Positions 10,683 to 16,588 of a stretch of DNA of 43,706 nucleotides are shown piece by piece. Source of the DNA: Pseudomonadota bacterium. Its GTDB lineage: Bacteria; Pseudomonadota; Alphaproteobacteria; Rickettsiales; UBA3002. Positions within the stretch are counted from its first letter, which is position 1. Every line of letters starts with the position of its first letter. The position numbers were made by a program, and so were the translations under genes. The notes beneath the pieces were generated by a model. The model worked only from the letters and a program-made list of their open reading frames with translations. It had not been told where the DNA came from and searched no databases. The stretch spans positions 1 through 43,706 of the forward strand of contig JBEHYI010000001.1 of assembly GCA_048498255.1 (NCBI GenBank), in the 5' to 3' direction.

Positions 10683-13568
10683 ATGGCGCAAACCGCACAA
10701 ACGGCAAATAAAAACGTGATGGCAGAAGCACCCGCAGCTGATTTCTCAGCCGCTGTGCTCACGCCGTCGATGCGGCAATATTTCGAGGTGAAATCCCGCC
10801 ATCCGGAATGTTTGCTGTTCTACCGCATGGGCGATTTTTACGAGCTGTTCTTCGACGACGCGGTGAAAGCCAGCGCCATCCTCGATATCGCGCTGACCAA
10901 GCGCGGCAAAAACGCGGGCGAGGACATCCCCATGTGCGGCGTGCCGGTGCATGCGGCGGAGGCGTATTTGCCCAAACTCATTGCCAGCGGCCTCAAAATC
11001 GCAATTTGCGAACAGCTCGAAACACCGGAAGAGGCGAAGAAGCGCGGCTATAAAGAGGTGGTCCGCCGCGATGTGGTGCGCATTGTGACACCAGGCACGA
11101 TCACGGAAGAAACCCTGCTTACGCCAGGAAATGCGCAGTATTTGGCTTCGTTGGCGATCCAAAATGACAGCGCAGCCGCAGCCTGGCTCGACCTCACCAC
11201 CGGCGAATTCACCGTCGCGCCGCTCAGCTTCACCCAAATCGCCGCGCAACTTTCGCGCCTGCAGCCGAAGGAATTGCTGCTCACGCAAGCGAGTTACGAC
11301 CAGTTGAAAGACCAGCCCTGGTTCCTCGAATGGCGCGAAAGCGTCACCCTCCGCCCGGATGTGCAATTCACCCCCGCAAGCGGCGAAAGGCGAGTGACCG
11401 CGCATTTCAAGGTCAGCACCAGCGACGGTTTCGGCGAATTTAGCGCGCAGGAATTTGCGGCTTGCGGCGCGCTGATTGATTACGTGCAACTCACCCAACT
11501 CGATGCCTCGGCACGGCTCGACGTGCCCAAACGCGAGCAAGCGGGTGAGTTTTTGCAGATGGATGGGGCAACCCGGCGCAACCTCGAACTCATCACCACG
11601 CTCGCCGGTCAGCGCCGCGGCAGCTTGCTCCATTGCATCGATGAAACGGTGACCGCGAGCGGCAGCCGCACGCTGGCACAGTGGCTGGCCGCGCCCTCGC
11701 GCGATTTTGCCGCCATCACCGCGCGGCAGGATGGCGTGGCTTGGGCGCTAACCAATGACCGTTTGCGTGAAGGACTGCGCGCGAATCTCAAGACAATCGC
11801 GGATATGGAGCGCGCCGTCGGCCGCCTCGCGCTTGGCCGCGGTGGCCCGCGCGATTTGCTGCTGCTTGGCGCGAGTTTAATGCAGGCGAATGCGCTGCAC
11901 GAGCAATTGCGCACGCTCGAGATTCCCACCTTGTTGCGGGATGCGCGGGATGCGCTCGCAGGCCATCACCAACTCGCGGAACATCTCAGTTTTGCCCTCA
12001 AAAAAGAAGTCGGCATCTTCGCACGCGATGGTAATTTCATCGCCGATGGCTTCCGCGCCGATCTCGACGAATACCGCCGTCTGCGCGATGAATCGAAGCG
12101 CGTCATCGCCGCGATGGAAACGAAGTTAAAGGACGATACCGGCATTCCGTCGCTCAAAATCAAGCATAATAATGTGCTCGGCTATTTCATCGAAATCACG
12201 CCGATTCACGAGAAAAAAGTGCCGGTGGAATTCATCCATCGCCAGGGCTTGGCGGGTGCGCTGCGCTACAGCACGCCGGAGCTGGCGGAGACCGCGCGCA
12301 AGATCGACGAGGCGGCGGATAAGGCGCTGAAGCTGGAGCTCATGCTGTTCGATGAGCTGCGCGCGAGCGTGCTCGATCGTGGGAAAGAGATTGTGTCAGC
12401 GGCACGTGCACTCGCGATCATCGATTGCATCACCGCGCTTGCCGAACTTGCCCATGGCGGCCAATGGGTGCGCCCAACCATCACCACCGCGCGTGAATTT
12501 CGTGTCACCGCGGGCCGTCACCCGGTGGTGGAAGCGGCACTCCGGCGCGCGCATGAGGAATTCATCGCGAATGATTGTTTTATGGCGGAAGCCGCGCCAC
12601 GGGCCAACTCCCCCCTTGAGGGGGAGTCAAATCCGCCCTTCGCGGATTTGGTGGGGGGTAATTCTTTCGCGAATAATAAGTCTCAAGTACCCCCCCACCA
12701 AAATGCCCAAGCGCATTTTGGCTCCCCCTCAAGGGGGGAGCTGGCCCCAGCCGCAACGCTTGTGCCTCATTCCGGCGTGCCCGGCATGCTCCACCTCATC
12801 ACCGGCCCCAATATGGGCGGTAAATCGACCTTCCTGCGCCAGCAGGCGGTGCTCACCATCCTTGCGCAAATCGGCAGTTTTGTGCCGGCGAAAGCGGCGA
12901 CCATCGGCCTGGTCGATAAGCTCTTCTGCCGCGTCGGCGCAGCGGATGACCTCGCACGCGGGCAATCCACCTTCATGGTCGAGATGGTCGAAACCGCAAG
13001 CATCCTCCATCAAGCCACCAGCCAATCCTTGGTGGTGCTCGATGAAATCGGCCGCGGCACCGCGACCTATGATGGCGTGTCGATCGCCTGGGCCGTTGCC
13101 GAACATCTGCACAACCACACGCGCTGCCGCGCCTTGTTCGCGACCCATTACCACGAACTCACCGCGCTCGCGCAAACCTTGCCGCGCCTGAAGAACTACC
13201 ACGCCACGGCGAAAGAACATCAAGGCAAGCTCATTTTCCTCCACACCATCCGCGAAGGTTTCGCCGATAAATCTTACGGCATCCATGTCGCCGCGCTGGC
13301 GGGCTTGCCGAAATCCGTCCTCACCCGCGCAAAGGAGCTGCTCTCCACCCTCGAATCCGGCCACAGCTTAACGGAACGGGACCAATCCGCTGAACTGCCA
13401 CTCTTTGCAGCGGTTAAAGTAAATACTCTAAGTGAGCAAACAAGCGACAAATCAAAATATTATAAATTGTTGGCTGAACGGATAGAAAATATAGATGTGG
13501 ATGGAATCACCCCGCGCGAAGCCCTTGATTTGTTGGCCGAACTAAAGCACGCCGCCTCGGCCGAATAA
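10683..13568 (+). CDS. mutS: DNA mismatch repair protein MutS, carrying a roughly 55-aa insertion before the Walker A motif
   Basis: [66 protein letters not shown] and FATHYHEL are all present. The start may be the internal Met at codon 13. Confidence 0.95.
12608..12740. repeat. 133-bp structured palindromic element (MITE/RPE-like) embedded in frame in mutS
   Basis: The termini ctccccccttgagggggag (12608-12626) and ctccccctcaaggggggag (12722-12740) are exact reverse complements. Internal hairpins are caaatccgc-ccttc-gcggatttg and ccaaaatgc-ccaagc-gcattttgg. The long-range pair is tggtggggggta / tacccccccacca. Confidence 0.8.
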
Positions 13569-13641
13569 GCCAAATATGTCAGTTTGATGAAGATTGTCCG
13601 CGGTCACTGTTTATTAACAATGCCTGTGCTACATTCCGGGC

Positions 13642-13812
13642 ATGAAAATTCTCACCCCCCACGGTCACCAACGCCGCCAAGATTTTCAGCTGGAGCTGCG
13701 CGGCACACATTGCCGGCGTGATTTCGACGTGCATGTGCACGGCCATCAAATAGATATTATCTCTGGCAAAAACCACGACGCGCGCAATAATAACCATAGG
13801 GATTGGTTCTAA
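13642..13812 (+). other. 56-codon ATG-initiated ORF ending in TAA, in the same reading frame as the downstream deaminase-fold gene
   Basis: Codon-by-codon reading: ATG 13642 ... TAA 13810-13812. The frame then stays open from 13813 into the 13960-15132 ORF. Below the 60-aa cutoff of the ORF track. Confidence 0.4.
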
Positions 13813-13959
13813 GCATTAACGCAGAGAGAGCGCGCCGAGCTTTTTGAGCATATCGCCAAAAAAGCGGGTAGTGCCTCGCTGGACAGCGATCAGTTCAAAG
13901 CAGCGTCAATTGGTGTTATTGAAAACCCGTTAGCAGGTGCGCCGCTGGAACGCCGCCAT

Positions 13960-15132
13960 TTGGCATTTATTGGCGTAAACACAGATTTGGGCGCTAAGCT
14001 CTATTTCAAAGATTGCGCCGAACAGAATATGATCAATGCGGCGACGAACTGGGTCGCTCAGCAGCAAACGCATAAAGAAAAAAAAGACCCGAAGCCGATC
14101 CGTTTTAAAATGATCGCGACATATGCAACGCGCGACGCAAATCCACTGATACCGGGCGACAAGGGCGTACATGGCGCAGCACCTTGCGGAAAATGCGTCG
14201 ATGCGCTGGCGAAAGTTGCAGAAGAGGGATGTGAGGTGTTGATTTTTACGCGTCGCCCGCAAGCGATGCGGCTCGAGCTAGCATCGCATCCCACTTTCTC
14301 GCAAGTGAAGGAGGGGAAAACATGGAAAACCACCATGGAGCAGTTGAACAAAAATCGCCGAATTTCGCTACCCGAACCGCAAGCAGCCATGCAGCGTGCT
14401 GCAATGGACGAAGTGATTGCTGAAGCCTGCGGCGTGCATGAAACGCCGCTGACAGAAGAGCAAAAGGCAGTTAAGGCGAGGGCTGTTATACTGGCGGCAA
14501 AAAATGAAGAGGAGGAGCGCGAAAGTGTTGCCTATCTCGATGCTGCCAGTGAAACTCCACATTTCAACTACCACCTAAAATATTACATGCAGCGTCAGCT
14601 GATTCGTACTTTAAGAAATCGTATGGAAGCAGCGGGTGTGCTGGGTGACCTCGATGCCGCGCGCGCCTGGGTAAGCGAATACGCAAAATCGATCCGTTGC
14701 TGTGTCACCCAACTGGATGATGGCACATTCCATAAGAGCATCGAGTCGCAGGTGCAGCGAGTGATTGGCAAAACCAAAGGCGACAATGCCTACCCCAACC
14801 CAGAAGTAGGGGCCCTGGTGCAGGGTATGGGAAAGCTCGGCACGGGGCAGATTACACATTTATGGACACGCGAACTTAACCCGGAAGAATGCGCGGCAGG
14901 CCTTCTTTCTACTTCGCCGAAAGAAGGCCTCGAACGGCTTTTCAAGCGCGGGCCGGACATGAAATGCCATTTTCTGCCGCTTGGTGCAGCAGCGCTTAGC
15001 CCAGACCAAGCAGATAAAATTACAGAAAAACATACCTATAGCCGCGCGCAAGTCTATCCTGGCGCCTTTGGCGGTGCACCGGCCACCATGGTTGCCGTTG
15101 CGCCCCGCGGTGGCAAAGCCGAATTAGGGTAA
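13960..15132 (+). CDS. Cytidine/deoxycytidylate-deaminase-fold protein (CAE ... PCxxC zinc motif) with a second, degenerate deaminase-like half. True start unresolved and possibly interrupted
   Basis: DCAEQNMINAAT followed 53 residues later by APCGKCVDALAKV. The C-terminal half has NPEVGAL ... SPKEGLERL in the equivalent positions. The track start is a TTG. The frame is open from 13813 and that upstream part (ELFEHIAKKAGSA...FKAASIGVI) looks like the N-terminal helix and strand of the fold. Confidence 0.6.
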   Translation: MAFIGVNTDLGAKLYFKDCAEQNMINAATNWVAQQQTHKEKKDPKPIRFKMIATYATRDANPLIPGDKGVHGAAPCGKCVDALAKVAEEGCEVLIFTRRPQAMRLELASHPTFSQVKEGKTWKTTMEQLNKNRRISLPEPQAAMQRAAMDEVIAEACGVHETPLTEEQKAVKARAVILAAKNEEEERESVAYLDAASETPHFNYHLKYYMQRQLIRTLRNRMEAAGVLGDLDAARAWVSEYAKSIRCCVTQLDDGTFHKSIESQVQRVIGKTKGDNAYPNPEVGALVQGMGKLGTGQITHLWTRELNPEECAAGLLSTSPKEGLERLFKRGPDMKCHFLPLGAAALSPDQADKITEKHTYSRAQVYPGAFGGAPATMVAVAPRGGKAELG

Positions 15133-15422: not shown

Positions 15423-15423
15423 T

Positions 15424-15529
15424 AGCTGTTAGCGGTTAGCAGTTAGGTTTTAGCTTCTGTTGAGTTTGGGGCGCCGACCTGCTAAAACGCACGGTAGAGC
15501 TAAAACCTAACTGCTAACGGCTAAATGCT
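15424..15529. repeat. Long imperfect inverted repeat (31-nt arms, 44-nt spacer) filling the rpmF-plsX gap
   Basis: Left arm agctgttagcggttagcagttaggttttagc (15424-15454). Right arm gctaaaacctaactgctaacggctaaatgct (15499-15529). There are 3 mismatches in 31, and the core 23 nt has a single mismatch. The right arm ends 1 nt before the plsX ATG. Confidence 0.8.
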
Positions 15530-16588
15530 ATGGCTTTATCCCTACCAATCGCAATCGATGCCATGGGCGGCGACAAAGCGCCCGAGGCGGTGATCCAGGG
15601 CGCGCGCCGCGTGCTGAAGGAATTCCCCGCTACCCGTTTCATTTTTTATGGCCGCGCACCGGTCATTGCGCCGCTCATTGCGCGCAACCGCGTGCTGGCC
15701 CGCGCTTCCGAAGTAGTGCATGCCGCGACCGTGATTGCGATGGATGAGAAGCCCTCCGTTGCGCTGCGCCAGGGGCGTGATTCCAGCATGCGCGCGGCGA
15801 TCGATGCGGTAGCGAAAGGCAAAGCTTGCGCCATGGTTTCCGCCGGTAACACCGGCGCGCTGATGGCGACTGCGAAGATTGTTCTCAAAACCCTCCCCGG
15901 TATTTACCGCCCGGCGATTACGGCCACTGTGCCCTCGCGCCATCGCCCGGTGGTGCTGCTCGATATGGGCGCGAATTTGGAATGCACGCCGGAATATCTC
16001 GTGCAATTCGCGGTGATGGGCGACGCTTATGCCCGCGCGGTGCTCGGTATGGCGGCACCGAAAATCGGTTTGCTGAATGTCGGCTCAGAAGAAATGAAAG
16101 GCCATGACGAGGTGAAAGAAGCGCACCGCATGCTGCGCTCGGGCGCTTACCCGATCGAGTATCACGGCTTTGTCGAAGGCAACGATATTCTCGAAGGCAC
16201 GACGGATGTGGTGGTGACGGACGGCTTCACCGGCAACATCGCGCTCAAAACTGCGGAAGGGGCGAGCCGTCTGATTTACGGTGCGCTGAAGAGCGCGTTC
16301 GAGCGCTCGACGATGGCGAAATTAGGCTATCTGCTGGCGCGCCCGGCGCTGCGTTTGGCGCTGAAACAATTCGATCCACGCAAGCTCAATGGCGCAATTT
16401 TGCTTGGCCTTAACGGCATCGCGGTGAAAAGCCATGGCGGGGCGGATGCAAAAAGTTTCGCCAACGCCATCAAGGTCGCCATCGCGATGGCGGAAAATAA
16501 TGTGAATGAAAAAATTATTGCCGAGCTTGCGCGCGTGAAACCTGTTACTGGCAACGCAACTGTTGTTCCATTCACCGCGGAAACCTAA
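15530..16588 (+). CDS. plsX: Phosphate acyltransferase PlsX
   Basis: IAIDAMGGDKAPEAV, SAGNTGALMA and GFTGNIALKT motifs. Conserved position between rpmF and fabH. Confidence 0.95.
   Translation: MALSLPIAIDAMGGDKAPEAVIQGARRVLKEFPATRFIFYGRAPVIAPLIARNRVLARASEVVHAATVIAMDEKPSVALRQGRDSSMRAAIDAVAKGKACAMVSAGNTGALMATAKIVLKTLPGIYRPAITATVPSRHRPVVLLDMGANLECTPEYLVQFAVMGDAYARAVLGMAAPKIGLLNVGSEEMKGHDEVKEAHRMLRSGAYPIEYHGFVEGNDILEGTTDVVVTDGFTGNIALKTAEGASRLIYGALKSAFERSTMAKLGYLLARPALRLALKQFDPRKLNGAILLGLNGIAVKSHGGADAKSFANAIKVAIAMAENNVNEKIIAELARVKPVTGNATVVPFTAET

Follow-up and report, generated by a model that had tools for sequence, protein, structure and literature searches.

The mutS gene in a 43,706-nt stretch of DNA from a Pseudomonadota bacterium classified in the Rickettsiales (GenBank assembly GCA_048498255.1, contig JBEHYI010000001.1, positions 1 to 43,706; here called the window) raises the question of how a long palindrome comes to lie within an intact reading frame, next to the ATPase motif of the encoded protein. 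A first-pass annotation made from the sequence had described the palindrome as a 133-bp element inserted in frame into mutS and had compared it with the Rickettsia palindromic elements (RPEs). The analysis presented here suggests that the feature is probably a copy, of about 180 nt and without a gene of its own, of a widespread structured palindromic repeat that is translated as part of MutS.

The palindrome at 12608-12740 was borne out, and every feature described in the annotation was found where it had been placed. The ends consist of an exact 19-nt inverted repeat, CTCCCCCCTTGAGGGGGAG, at 12608-12626 on the forward strand and 12722-12740 on the reverse strand, each copy of which also forms an 8-bp hairpin; shuffles of the window give 0.00 expected chance occurrences of this terminal repeat. 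The left terminal hairpin (12607..12627) is composed of the pyrimidine arm ACTCCCCC, the loop CTTGA and the purine arm GGGGGAGT. It is followed by the left inner variable hairpin (12628..12650), which has a perfect 9-bp stem (12628-36/12642-50), and by the G block GGTGGGGGG (12650..12658), which is a mirror image of the purine arm GGGGGAG and is paired, in addition, with the C block CCCCCCCACC at 12690..12699. This C block is complementary to the G block in the right-hand module. Between the two blocks lies an A+T-rich central loop (12659..12689), around which the long-range pairing of the G-run and the C-run is formed (12653-63 with 12685-95). The right half contains the right inner variable hairpin (12698..12721), also with a perfect 9-bp stem (12698-706/12713-21), and the right terminal hairpin (12721..12741), GCTCCCCC TCAAG GGGGGAGC. 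Folded as RNA, the segment reaches -99.1 kcal/mol, as compared to -54.5 +/- 4.3 kcal/mol for dinucleotide shuffles (z = -10.5). The terminal hairpin contains no stop codon in five of its six reading frames.

To define the empty site, we used the closest MutS protein, P0002 (902 aa, 82% identical), which is encoded at locus L001. In a BLASTN comparison of the window with this locus, positions 10759-12589 and 12783-13551 align with approximately 80.5% identity, while nothing aligns between them. The segment at 12590..12782 on the forward strand is thus 193 nt long in the window and corresponds to 13 nt in the closest ortholog, a net gain of 180 nt or 60 codons, with collinear flanks and clean breakpoints. 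Compared with its closest ortholog, the window gene contains an insertion here, and the insert is likewise absent from the 20 other orthologs in the alignment. The annotation had envisaged that close relatives might share the segment without its palindromic structure, which is not the case for an ortholog with 13 nt at this site, and it had estimated the insert at about 55 extra residues, which is too few in light of the net gain of 60.

Since the ortholog lacks 12590-12782 and the net gain is 180 nt, the 133-nt stretch is real but represents only the core of the element. The inverted repeat extends outward imperfectly, to 12594-12631/12717-12754 (38-nt arms, 87% complementary), so that an outer arm at 12594..12607 pairs with another at 12741..12754, and beyond the right arm there is an asymmetric 17-nt tail, AACGCTTGTGCCTCATT (12755..12771 on the forward strand), which other copies have in common (AACGCTTGAGCC...). 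The tail and right flank resemble the flanks of the copies at L146 and L157 (z = 3.7-3.9). With the outer inverted repeat, the core and the shared tail included, the best estimate of the inserted element is therefore 12594..12771, or about 178-180 nt in full. A likeness between the left end of the L146 type (ATGGCTGAAAAGG) and the mutS target (ATGGCGGAAGCC) was also considered and dropped, as it was weak (z of about 2).

The reading frame stays open through the element, and the inserted peptide had been quoted correctly. The mutS coding sequence (10683..13568 on the forward strand) is intact and encodes 961 aa, of which residues ~638-696 represent the insert. All of the Pfam MutS domains, I-V plus C, are present in the identical protein P0001, which is the sole member of its cluster; the MutS relatives of the window protein come from uncultured alphaproteobacterial metagenome-assembled genomes (MAGs). 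In an alignment of 22 sequences, Walker A and the other MutS motifs are invariant, and most orthologs have only a few residues between the FIANDC segment and the strand that precedes Walker A. The insert is placed between positions corresponding to residues 601 and 610 in E. coli MutS, directly before the Walker A strand, and the codons for the P-loop GPNMGGKST (residues 708-716; 12804..12830 on the forward strand) begin 33 nt downstream of it. In an AlphaFold2 model, the insert has pLDDT values of 26-35 and no predicted secondary structure. It is probably a disordered loop, and its effect on MutS is probably neutral.

The same loop is occupied in related genomes. Four related mutS genes (L123-L126) have hairpin-forming DNA of four other sequence types at this site, and a second loop, in the N-terminal half of MutS, carries further elements in two of the four (L125 and L126). 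One and the same element is present at both loops in L125, while the second-loop element in L126 belongs to the superfamily of the window element. Two MutS loops are thereby identified that tolerate 30-80 extra residues. In the MutS alignment, the palindromic inserts are found in columns 217-250 and 730-830, and in L123-L126 the mutS gene starts at position 3001. The palindromic elements in the pre-Walker-A loop of L126 are nested, one within another.

Homologous elements lie elsewhere in intergenic DNA and, in frame, within unrelated genes; with many related copies in other metagenomes and genomes, the element is not without homologs. The 19-mer matches at least 120 loci in a scan of contigs from one genome per species. 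Among the matches listed, most are from Alphaproteobacteria, namely Mesorhizobium, Agrobacterium, Brucella, Neorhizobium, Aminobacter, Stellaceae and lake MAGs labelled Rickettsiales, and some are from other phyla. A 24-mer that is specific for the subfamily of the window element identified 63 metagenome loci, including nine full symmetric copies, with several copies per sample, and L105 represents a further full symmetric copy. A phmmer search with the insert peptide against 1.84 billion representatives gave four matches, with a query too short for a census; P0125 and P0127 are short open reading frames (ORFs) across similar short copies, while P0124 and P0126 are multi-stretch matches, of which P0126 was discarded as an unrelated repeat protein. 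A literature search with the terminal hairpin as a literal string gave no match.

The copies share a common plan. In order, they consist of the terminal hairpin, followed by YCAAA, a variable stem-loop and TTTG, then GTGGGGGG, a variable centre, CCCCCCAC, a second variable stem-loop and the terminal hairpin. Modules start with (A/G)CTCCCC, and many copies combine the CTCCCCC-type module with a second type, which contains CCCTCCC TCAAG GGGAGGG plus a GGGGAGGGG block. Members of a subfamily have their centres and long outer arms in common. The modules occupy both strands, are arranged as inverted pairs, lie in either direction with respect to genes and occur in coding as well as non-coding DNA, in hosts with G+C contents from about 30% to 68%. 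Eight of the loci (L106, L022, L144, L152, L168, L177, L180 and L181) come from genomes of 29-36% G+C and contain G+C-rich modules with the exact 19-mer; such modules in low-G+C genomes argue for strong sequence constraint or recent transfer.

Two other arrangements of the modules were observed. Tandem arrays of truncated modules, with CCGCTGTCCCCCCTTGAGGGGGAGTCAAACGCCGTAGGCGTTTGGTGGGGGGG repeated, are present in L145 (about 1-140 and 690-760), L155 (4991-5080) and L159 (2700-2816), and the modules therefore also amplify head to tail. Outward-facing modules, in the order C block, hairpin, terminal hairpin ... terminal hairpin, hairpin, G block, are present in Mesorhizobium, Agrobacterium, Brucella and Aminobacter (L003, L010, L023, L029, L033, L056 and others). 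These rhizobial and Brucella modules may correspond to the Bru-RS1/2 or RIME repeats of the older literature.

The hairpins of the repeat covary, and their structure is thus constrained. Across 46 distinct half-modules, 98.4% of the cells in the alignment are standard pairs, as compared to 84.1% in shuffles and 40-62% with slid partners, and both sides have changed at six pairs, in 117 cells; these counts use only the columns left free by the selection pattern. Five of the pairs in the left inner hairpin are double-changed, and the terminal hairpin is closed by G-C in 29 half-modules and by A-T in 17, with no unpaired case. A covariance model built from the 46 half-modules, R1, was run on the window without filters. 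It scores the two halves of the window element at 73.6 and 70.8 bits (right half: 12691-12743, minus strand) and finds no other module in the 43.7 kb.

The family also occupies genes other than mutS in frame. Open frames that span copies were checked with Pfam, which placed the element between the lipoyl and E3-binding domains in the E2 subunit of pyruvate dehydrogenase (PDH), between the N-terminal lipoyl domain and the transketolase domain in PDH E1beta, before the TaqI_C domain in an Eco57I-type methylase, after the methylase domain in an N6_N4 methylase and, as a full symmetric copy, inside an alpha/beta hydrolase. More E2 and E1beta cases are present in other contigs; in-frame copies in the flexible linkers of these genes were seen in L132, L133, L160, L171, L178 and L185, and each of the two linkers of E2 contains one in the cultured strain Mesorhizobium sophorae ICMP 19535 (L081, about 5000-5400). 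The left module is mostly translated as ...SPLEGE...GG, in the same frame as in MutS. The hosts thus include core enzymes (MutS, PDH E2 and E1beta), some of them in cultured Mesorhizobium, which makes them open to proteomics.

When the ORFs of the fetched loci were clustered, a protein of ~110-130 aa was found to adjoin modules in seven unrelated loci; other recurrent clusters were the PDH genes and a 13-locus cluster, presumed to be ABC-type ATPases. The seven-locus protein belongs to DUF559 (PF04480; Pfam E-values of 1e-35 to 1e-40). In three of the seven loci, its gene is bracketed by two inverted modules (L138 346-826, L047 4856-5378 and L156 841-1403), and it then occupies the place of the central loop in the window element. 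The L138 modules are of the window type (73 bits), and the insert peptide of the window can be aligned with the L138 sequence on either side of the DUF559 domain (left: SPLEGE.NPP..ADLVGG). The window element therefore resembles a DUF559 unit without the gene.

As a reciprocal test, PLSDB was searched with the DUF559 protein and 13 loci were taken (L190-L202, with the gene at about 501-830 in each). The first ten, from Shinella, Sinorhizobium (two records), Azospirillum (two), Sphingomonas, Methylobacterium, Deinococcus, Pseudanabaena and Neisseria, all have modules within ~150 nt, and inverted repeats of 24-114 nt bracket the gene in six of them. The loci from Picosynechococcus and Photobacterium and the E. 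coli ycjD locus likewise have modules, giving 13 out of 13 independently chosen DUF559 loci. The sequence of the modules differs between taxa, while the layout is kept. In the E. coli ycjD region, the sequence is multi-copy, with a median of four places per genome. Furthermore, half of the inverted-repeat pairs that are 300-700 nt apart in the 1.3 Mb of fetched DNA enclose a DUF559 gene. DUF559 genes and modules are thus associated. DUF559 proteins are widespread and, to our knowledge, have no assigned function, and a literature search found no report that links them to such repeats. The domain is placed in the Vsr-like clade of PD-(D/E)XK nucleases, which includes a group I intron homing endonuclease (PMC3424549). 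By analogy with the REP-associated tyrosine transposases (RAYTs), which maintain the hairpin-forming doublets (REPINs) of repetitive extragenic palindromic (REP) sequences, DUF559 may propagate or maintain the family in trans.

These observations are consistent with a simple history. Two inverted modules, each with a C-arm/G-arm hairpin with the conserved CTTGA loop, a paired hairpin of free sequence and a mirror G block, would have inserted into mutS after the split from the closest sequenced relative. The insertion would have persisted as it added a multiple of three bases and contained no stop codon in the frame used, with the element being translated as a Pro/Gly/Ser-rich loop of ~59 aa before the Walker A strand. 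Selection would remove the disruptive insertions and leave those that are tolerated, so that persistence would reflect tolerance at a surface loop; such tolerance explains the presence of other palindromic elements at the same loop in related genomes. The hairpins, or a triplex, may act in single-stranded DNA, and the DUF559 gene at the centre of the larger copies may propagate or maintain the family in trans, in the manner of a RAYT.

Several points weigh against this explanation or parts of it. A single copy is visible from the source genome, which is represented by one 43.7-kb contig, and the related loci were chosen by motif, so that their counts are not independent. No clear direct repeat that would indicate a target-site duplication was found at the empty-site junctions in several alignments, for which the empty site is only ~80% identical DNA. 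The AlphaFold2 model is only moderate (mean pLDDT of 72, from the 22-sequence alignment). With regard to the enzyme, neither the window nor the loci fetched for the relatives of the window element contain a DUF559 gene, the other half of the bracketing inverted-repeat pairs encloses no recognisable gene, and the DUF559 gene is not always in the same position, lying in some cases between the G/C blocks and in others between the hairpins or next to a doublet. Finally, E. coli ycjD is fixed as a single-copy gene and was found in 5145 of 5426 genomes, which is as compatible with a domesticated gene, or one that is merely co-located, as with a mobilising one.

The annotation had also suggested that the element might modulate mismatch repair or mark a mutator-prone allele. 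One such reading would make the element a contingency device, in which the modules and the C/G runs switch mutS off and on and selection acts on a reversible mutator state. The element contains C6-C7 and G6 runs, and homopolymer runs of 5-7 lie within the coding frame. Additionally, genomic instability has been linked to TM/BoxC sites, and DNA polymerase is blocked in vitro by PIT elements (PMC4666352); palindromic elements also recur at two loops in mutS genes of this clade. However, all six mutS alleles examined are intact and in frame, runs of at most seven are short for efficient phase variation, and the same family is found in PDH linkers and methylases, where there is no switching logic and tolerance is the simpler explanation. 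We therefore regard a contingency device as improbable. That the module pair is a local instability hotspot able to toggle mismatch repair is a further possibility, and a mutator effect is likewise possible, but it is not needed to explain the data. The position of the insert does raise the question of whether a triplex- or cruciform-prone sequence beside the ATPase motif destabilises mutS.

Slightly less probable still is that the element is a functional structured RNA, either a non-coding RNA (ncRNA) like Whalefall-1 or a cis-acting mRNA structure, that controls the translation, stability or transcription of mutS. The strong covariation of the hairpins is as expected for such an RNA, each half resembles Whalefall-1, and there is a terminator-like site at 12635-12659. 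This single site is, however, within the shuffle expectation (0.4 +/- 0.6), and the scan for promoters and terminators identified no promoter-like site and nothing beyond what shuffles give. Modules on both strands, in either orientation, in coding and non-coding DNA and at unrelated loci are also difficult to reconcile with an RNA function. The mirror third block fits a purine-motif DNA triplex, which cannot form in RNA (PMC4666352), and a role at the DNA level is therefore favoured.

It is very unlikely that the palindrome is an assembly artefact, such as a hairpin or chimeric join. The contig is derived from a metagenome and is the only record of the protein, and palindromes can be artefacts, but the insertion of 180 nt keeps the exact frame, both flanks are collinear with the ortholog, and the same architecture recurs in many independent assemblies and finished genomes. 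Least credible of all is an ordinary lineage-specific surface loop that is palindromic by chance or local duplication: the MutS proteins of this clade do tolerate variable lengths at this position and the window has one copy only, but neither the folding energy and the exact 19-nt terminal repeats, nor the near-identical modules at dozens of unrelated loci in other organisms, nor the 193 nt against 13 nt in the closest ortholog would be expected from it.

Other palindromes and neighbouring sequences in the window were noted. A 108-nt palindrome at 15423-15530 fills the gap between the stop codon of rpmF and the start codon of plsX; it is built from GTTAGCN-like heptads and has 33-nt arms that are 91% complementary. 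Heptad-built arms are also present in the mutS inserts of L123 and L124 and beside modules in L145, L155 and L159. Another palindrome is located at the very start of the contig (1-71; CCTGCGCGGGGATGACGG... / ...CCGTCATCCCCGCG-like arms, 24 nt, 83% complementary), and the contig end may thus fall inside a repeat. The ~1.6-kb segment between mutS and rpmF (13552-15131), which includes a 390-aa ORF (13960-15132), has no counterpart in L001, while unannotated ORFs of 472-490 aa occupy this place in L124 and L126. Inserts in a neighbouring 604-aa ORF were considered and ruled out, since this is simply a fast-evolving protein.

How does the window element relate to known repeat systems? [quoted passage not shown] Bacterial MITEs are also known to make in-frame fusions, as exemplified by Coxiella QMITE1/2, ERIC and Correia elements (PMC5896051). 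However, neither a relative with an insertion sequence (IS)-type transposase nor a target-site duplication was identified, and the ends of the window element are hairpins rather than plain inverted repeats. The copies with the order module - DUF559 gene - module and with modules of the window type (L138, L156 and L047) contain a protein that is not a known transposase.

The REP/REPIN-RAYT systems are similar in another respect. Both are short structured repeats that occur as inverted doublets, both include one small gene of nuclease type with its own repeats on either side, and in both the sequence of the repeat varies by taxon while the layout is kept. The window modules differ in that they lack the GTAG/CGTC head of REP sequences, and REPs are extragenic, whereas repeats of the window type are often intragenic. 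The neighbouring gene is also different, a PD-(D/E)XK nuclease of the DUF559 family rather than a Y1 (HUH) transposase, although no search was aimed at RAYT genes.

In-frame palindromic repeats are a textbook feature of Rickettsia and are usually seen as a peculiarity of this genus. Like the RPEs, the repeats described here are palindromes of ~100-180 nt that lie in frame in unrelated housekeeping genes and are translated as an extra peptide, and the window element folds into a long hairpin, as RPEs do. RPEs sit at sites compatible with protein folding and are read through as an extra peptide (PMC10969869). The comparison made in the annotation thus stands for the behaviour, that of a selfish palindromic repeat translated in frame, but not for membership, as composition and motifs point to the BoxC/PIT/Whalefall-1 type instead. 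The window element is G+C-rich (57%) with triplex-type modules, the hosts of the family are free-living Alphaproteobacteria and other phyla rather than Rickettsia, and there is a candidate partner enzyme in DUF559, while we know of no partner enzyme for the RPEs. The data support the view that the element works like an RPE, yet its composition, motifs and hosts probably set it apart from them. RPE-like behaviour thus extends to another family of repeats, in free-living Alphaproteobacteria and outside this class.

The closest likeness in layout is to the BoxC/PIT/TM repeats. In these (TMECO), a pyrimidine block is followed by a purine block and then by a further purine block in mirror image (Holder et al. 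2015, PMC4666352; for earlier work on BoxC/PIT by Bergler, Bachellier and Hoyne/Maher, see references therein). E. coli MG1655 has 23 copies and five inverted pairs, which always combine a type A with a type B copy, and triplex formation by BoxC/TM has been shown in vitro (PMC4666352). The window element has the same three blocks, CTCCCCCC / GGGGGAG / GTGGGGGG, with T opposite A, and the G block at 12650..12658 is the third block of the triplex-type motif. In all of the fetched DNA, a perfect mirror block is found at most 70 nt 3' of 50% of the 833 C-arm hairpins, whereas the corresponding figures are 8% for the 5' side and 20% for blocks in direct orientation. Many of the arm/block pairs co-vary. 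The likeness thus covers a G/C-rich pyrimidine arm, a purine arm and a mirror purine block, as well as inverted pairs that often join two module types, multiple copies and a distribution across phyla. The E. coli copies beside ycjD have the same layout as the window modules.

There are also differences. Loop 2 in the window element is a covarying stem-loop of ~23 nt (12628-12650) rather than 1-6 nt, which places the window module outside the ITxF definition, while relatives without the inner hairpin have loops as short as this definition asks for (L126 3492-3589, L071 and L017). TMECO repeats were reported to be 'always intergenic', with no link to mobile elements (PMC4666352), whereas the window copy and many of its relatives are translated inside genes. 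The same paper makes no mention of ycjD, DUF559 or any endonuclease (PMC4666352). As read from the sequence, the layout of the window element is of the triplex type, pyrimidine-purine-purine (Y-R-R), with an extra stem-loop in loop 2.

Whalefall-1 (RF01762) was proposed to be a free-standing ncRNA, rated as a certain RNA by its authors, with whale-fall metagenomes as its only known source (Weinberg et al. 2010, PMC2864571). It shares with the window halves an order of two hairpins followed by a G-rich tail, and a UUG(A/G) loop in the first hairpin. An Rfam scan of the window gave no match above threshold; the two halves of the element align with Whalefall-1 from one end to the other, but their scores of 22.2 and 20.6 bits fall short of the gathering score of 37, and matches to miRNA precursors were dismissed, as they reflect the long hairpin only. 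Matches above the threshold (49.2 and 37.1 bits) were found in L126 and L134. Each of the two represents half of a palindromic doublet built on the plan of the window element (L126 6010-6135; L134 about 470-593). The doublet in L126 directly follows the mutS stop codon of a related genome, and its Whalefall-1 match scores 35.2 bits with R1. This suggests that the Whalefall-1 motif represents one half of a DNA repeat.

More speculatively, and with less than even confidence, the window element can be viewed as the gene-less form of a class of very small selfish elements in which a DUF559 gene is flanked by inverted triplex-forming modules. BoxC/PIT/TM, Whalefall-1 and the abundant 'PLEGE...GG' repeats of the Rhizobiales might then constitute a single superfamily, maintained by DUF559, whose members could invade coding sequences in frame in many phyla. 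DUF559 is a concrete and testable candidate for what propagates or maintains such repeats, and the comparison ties the BoxC/PIT triplex repeats, the Whalefall-1 motif and the RPE-like coding insertions into one architecture.

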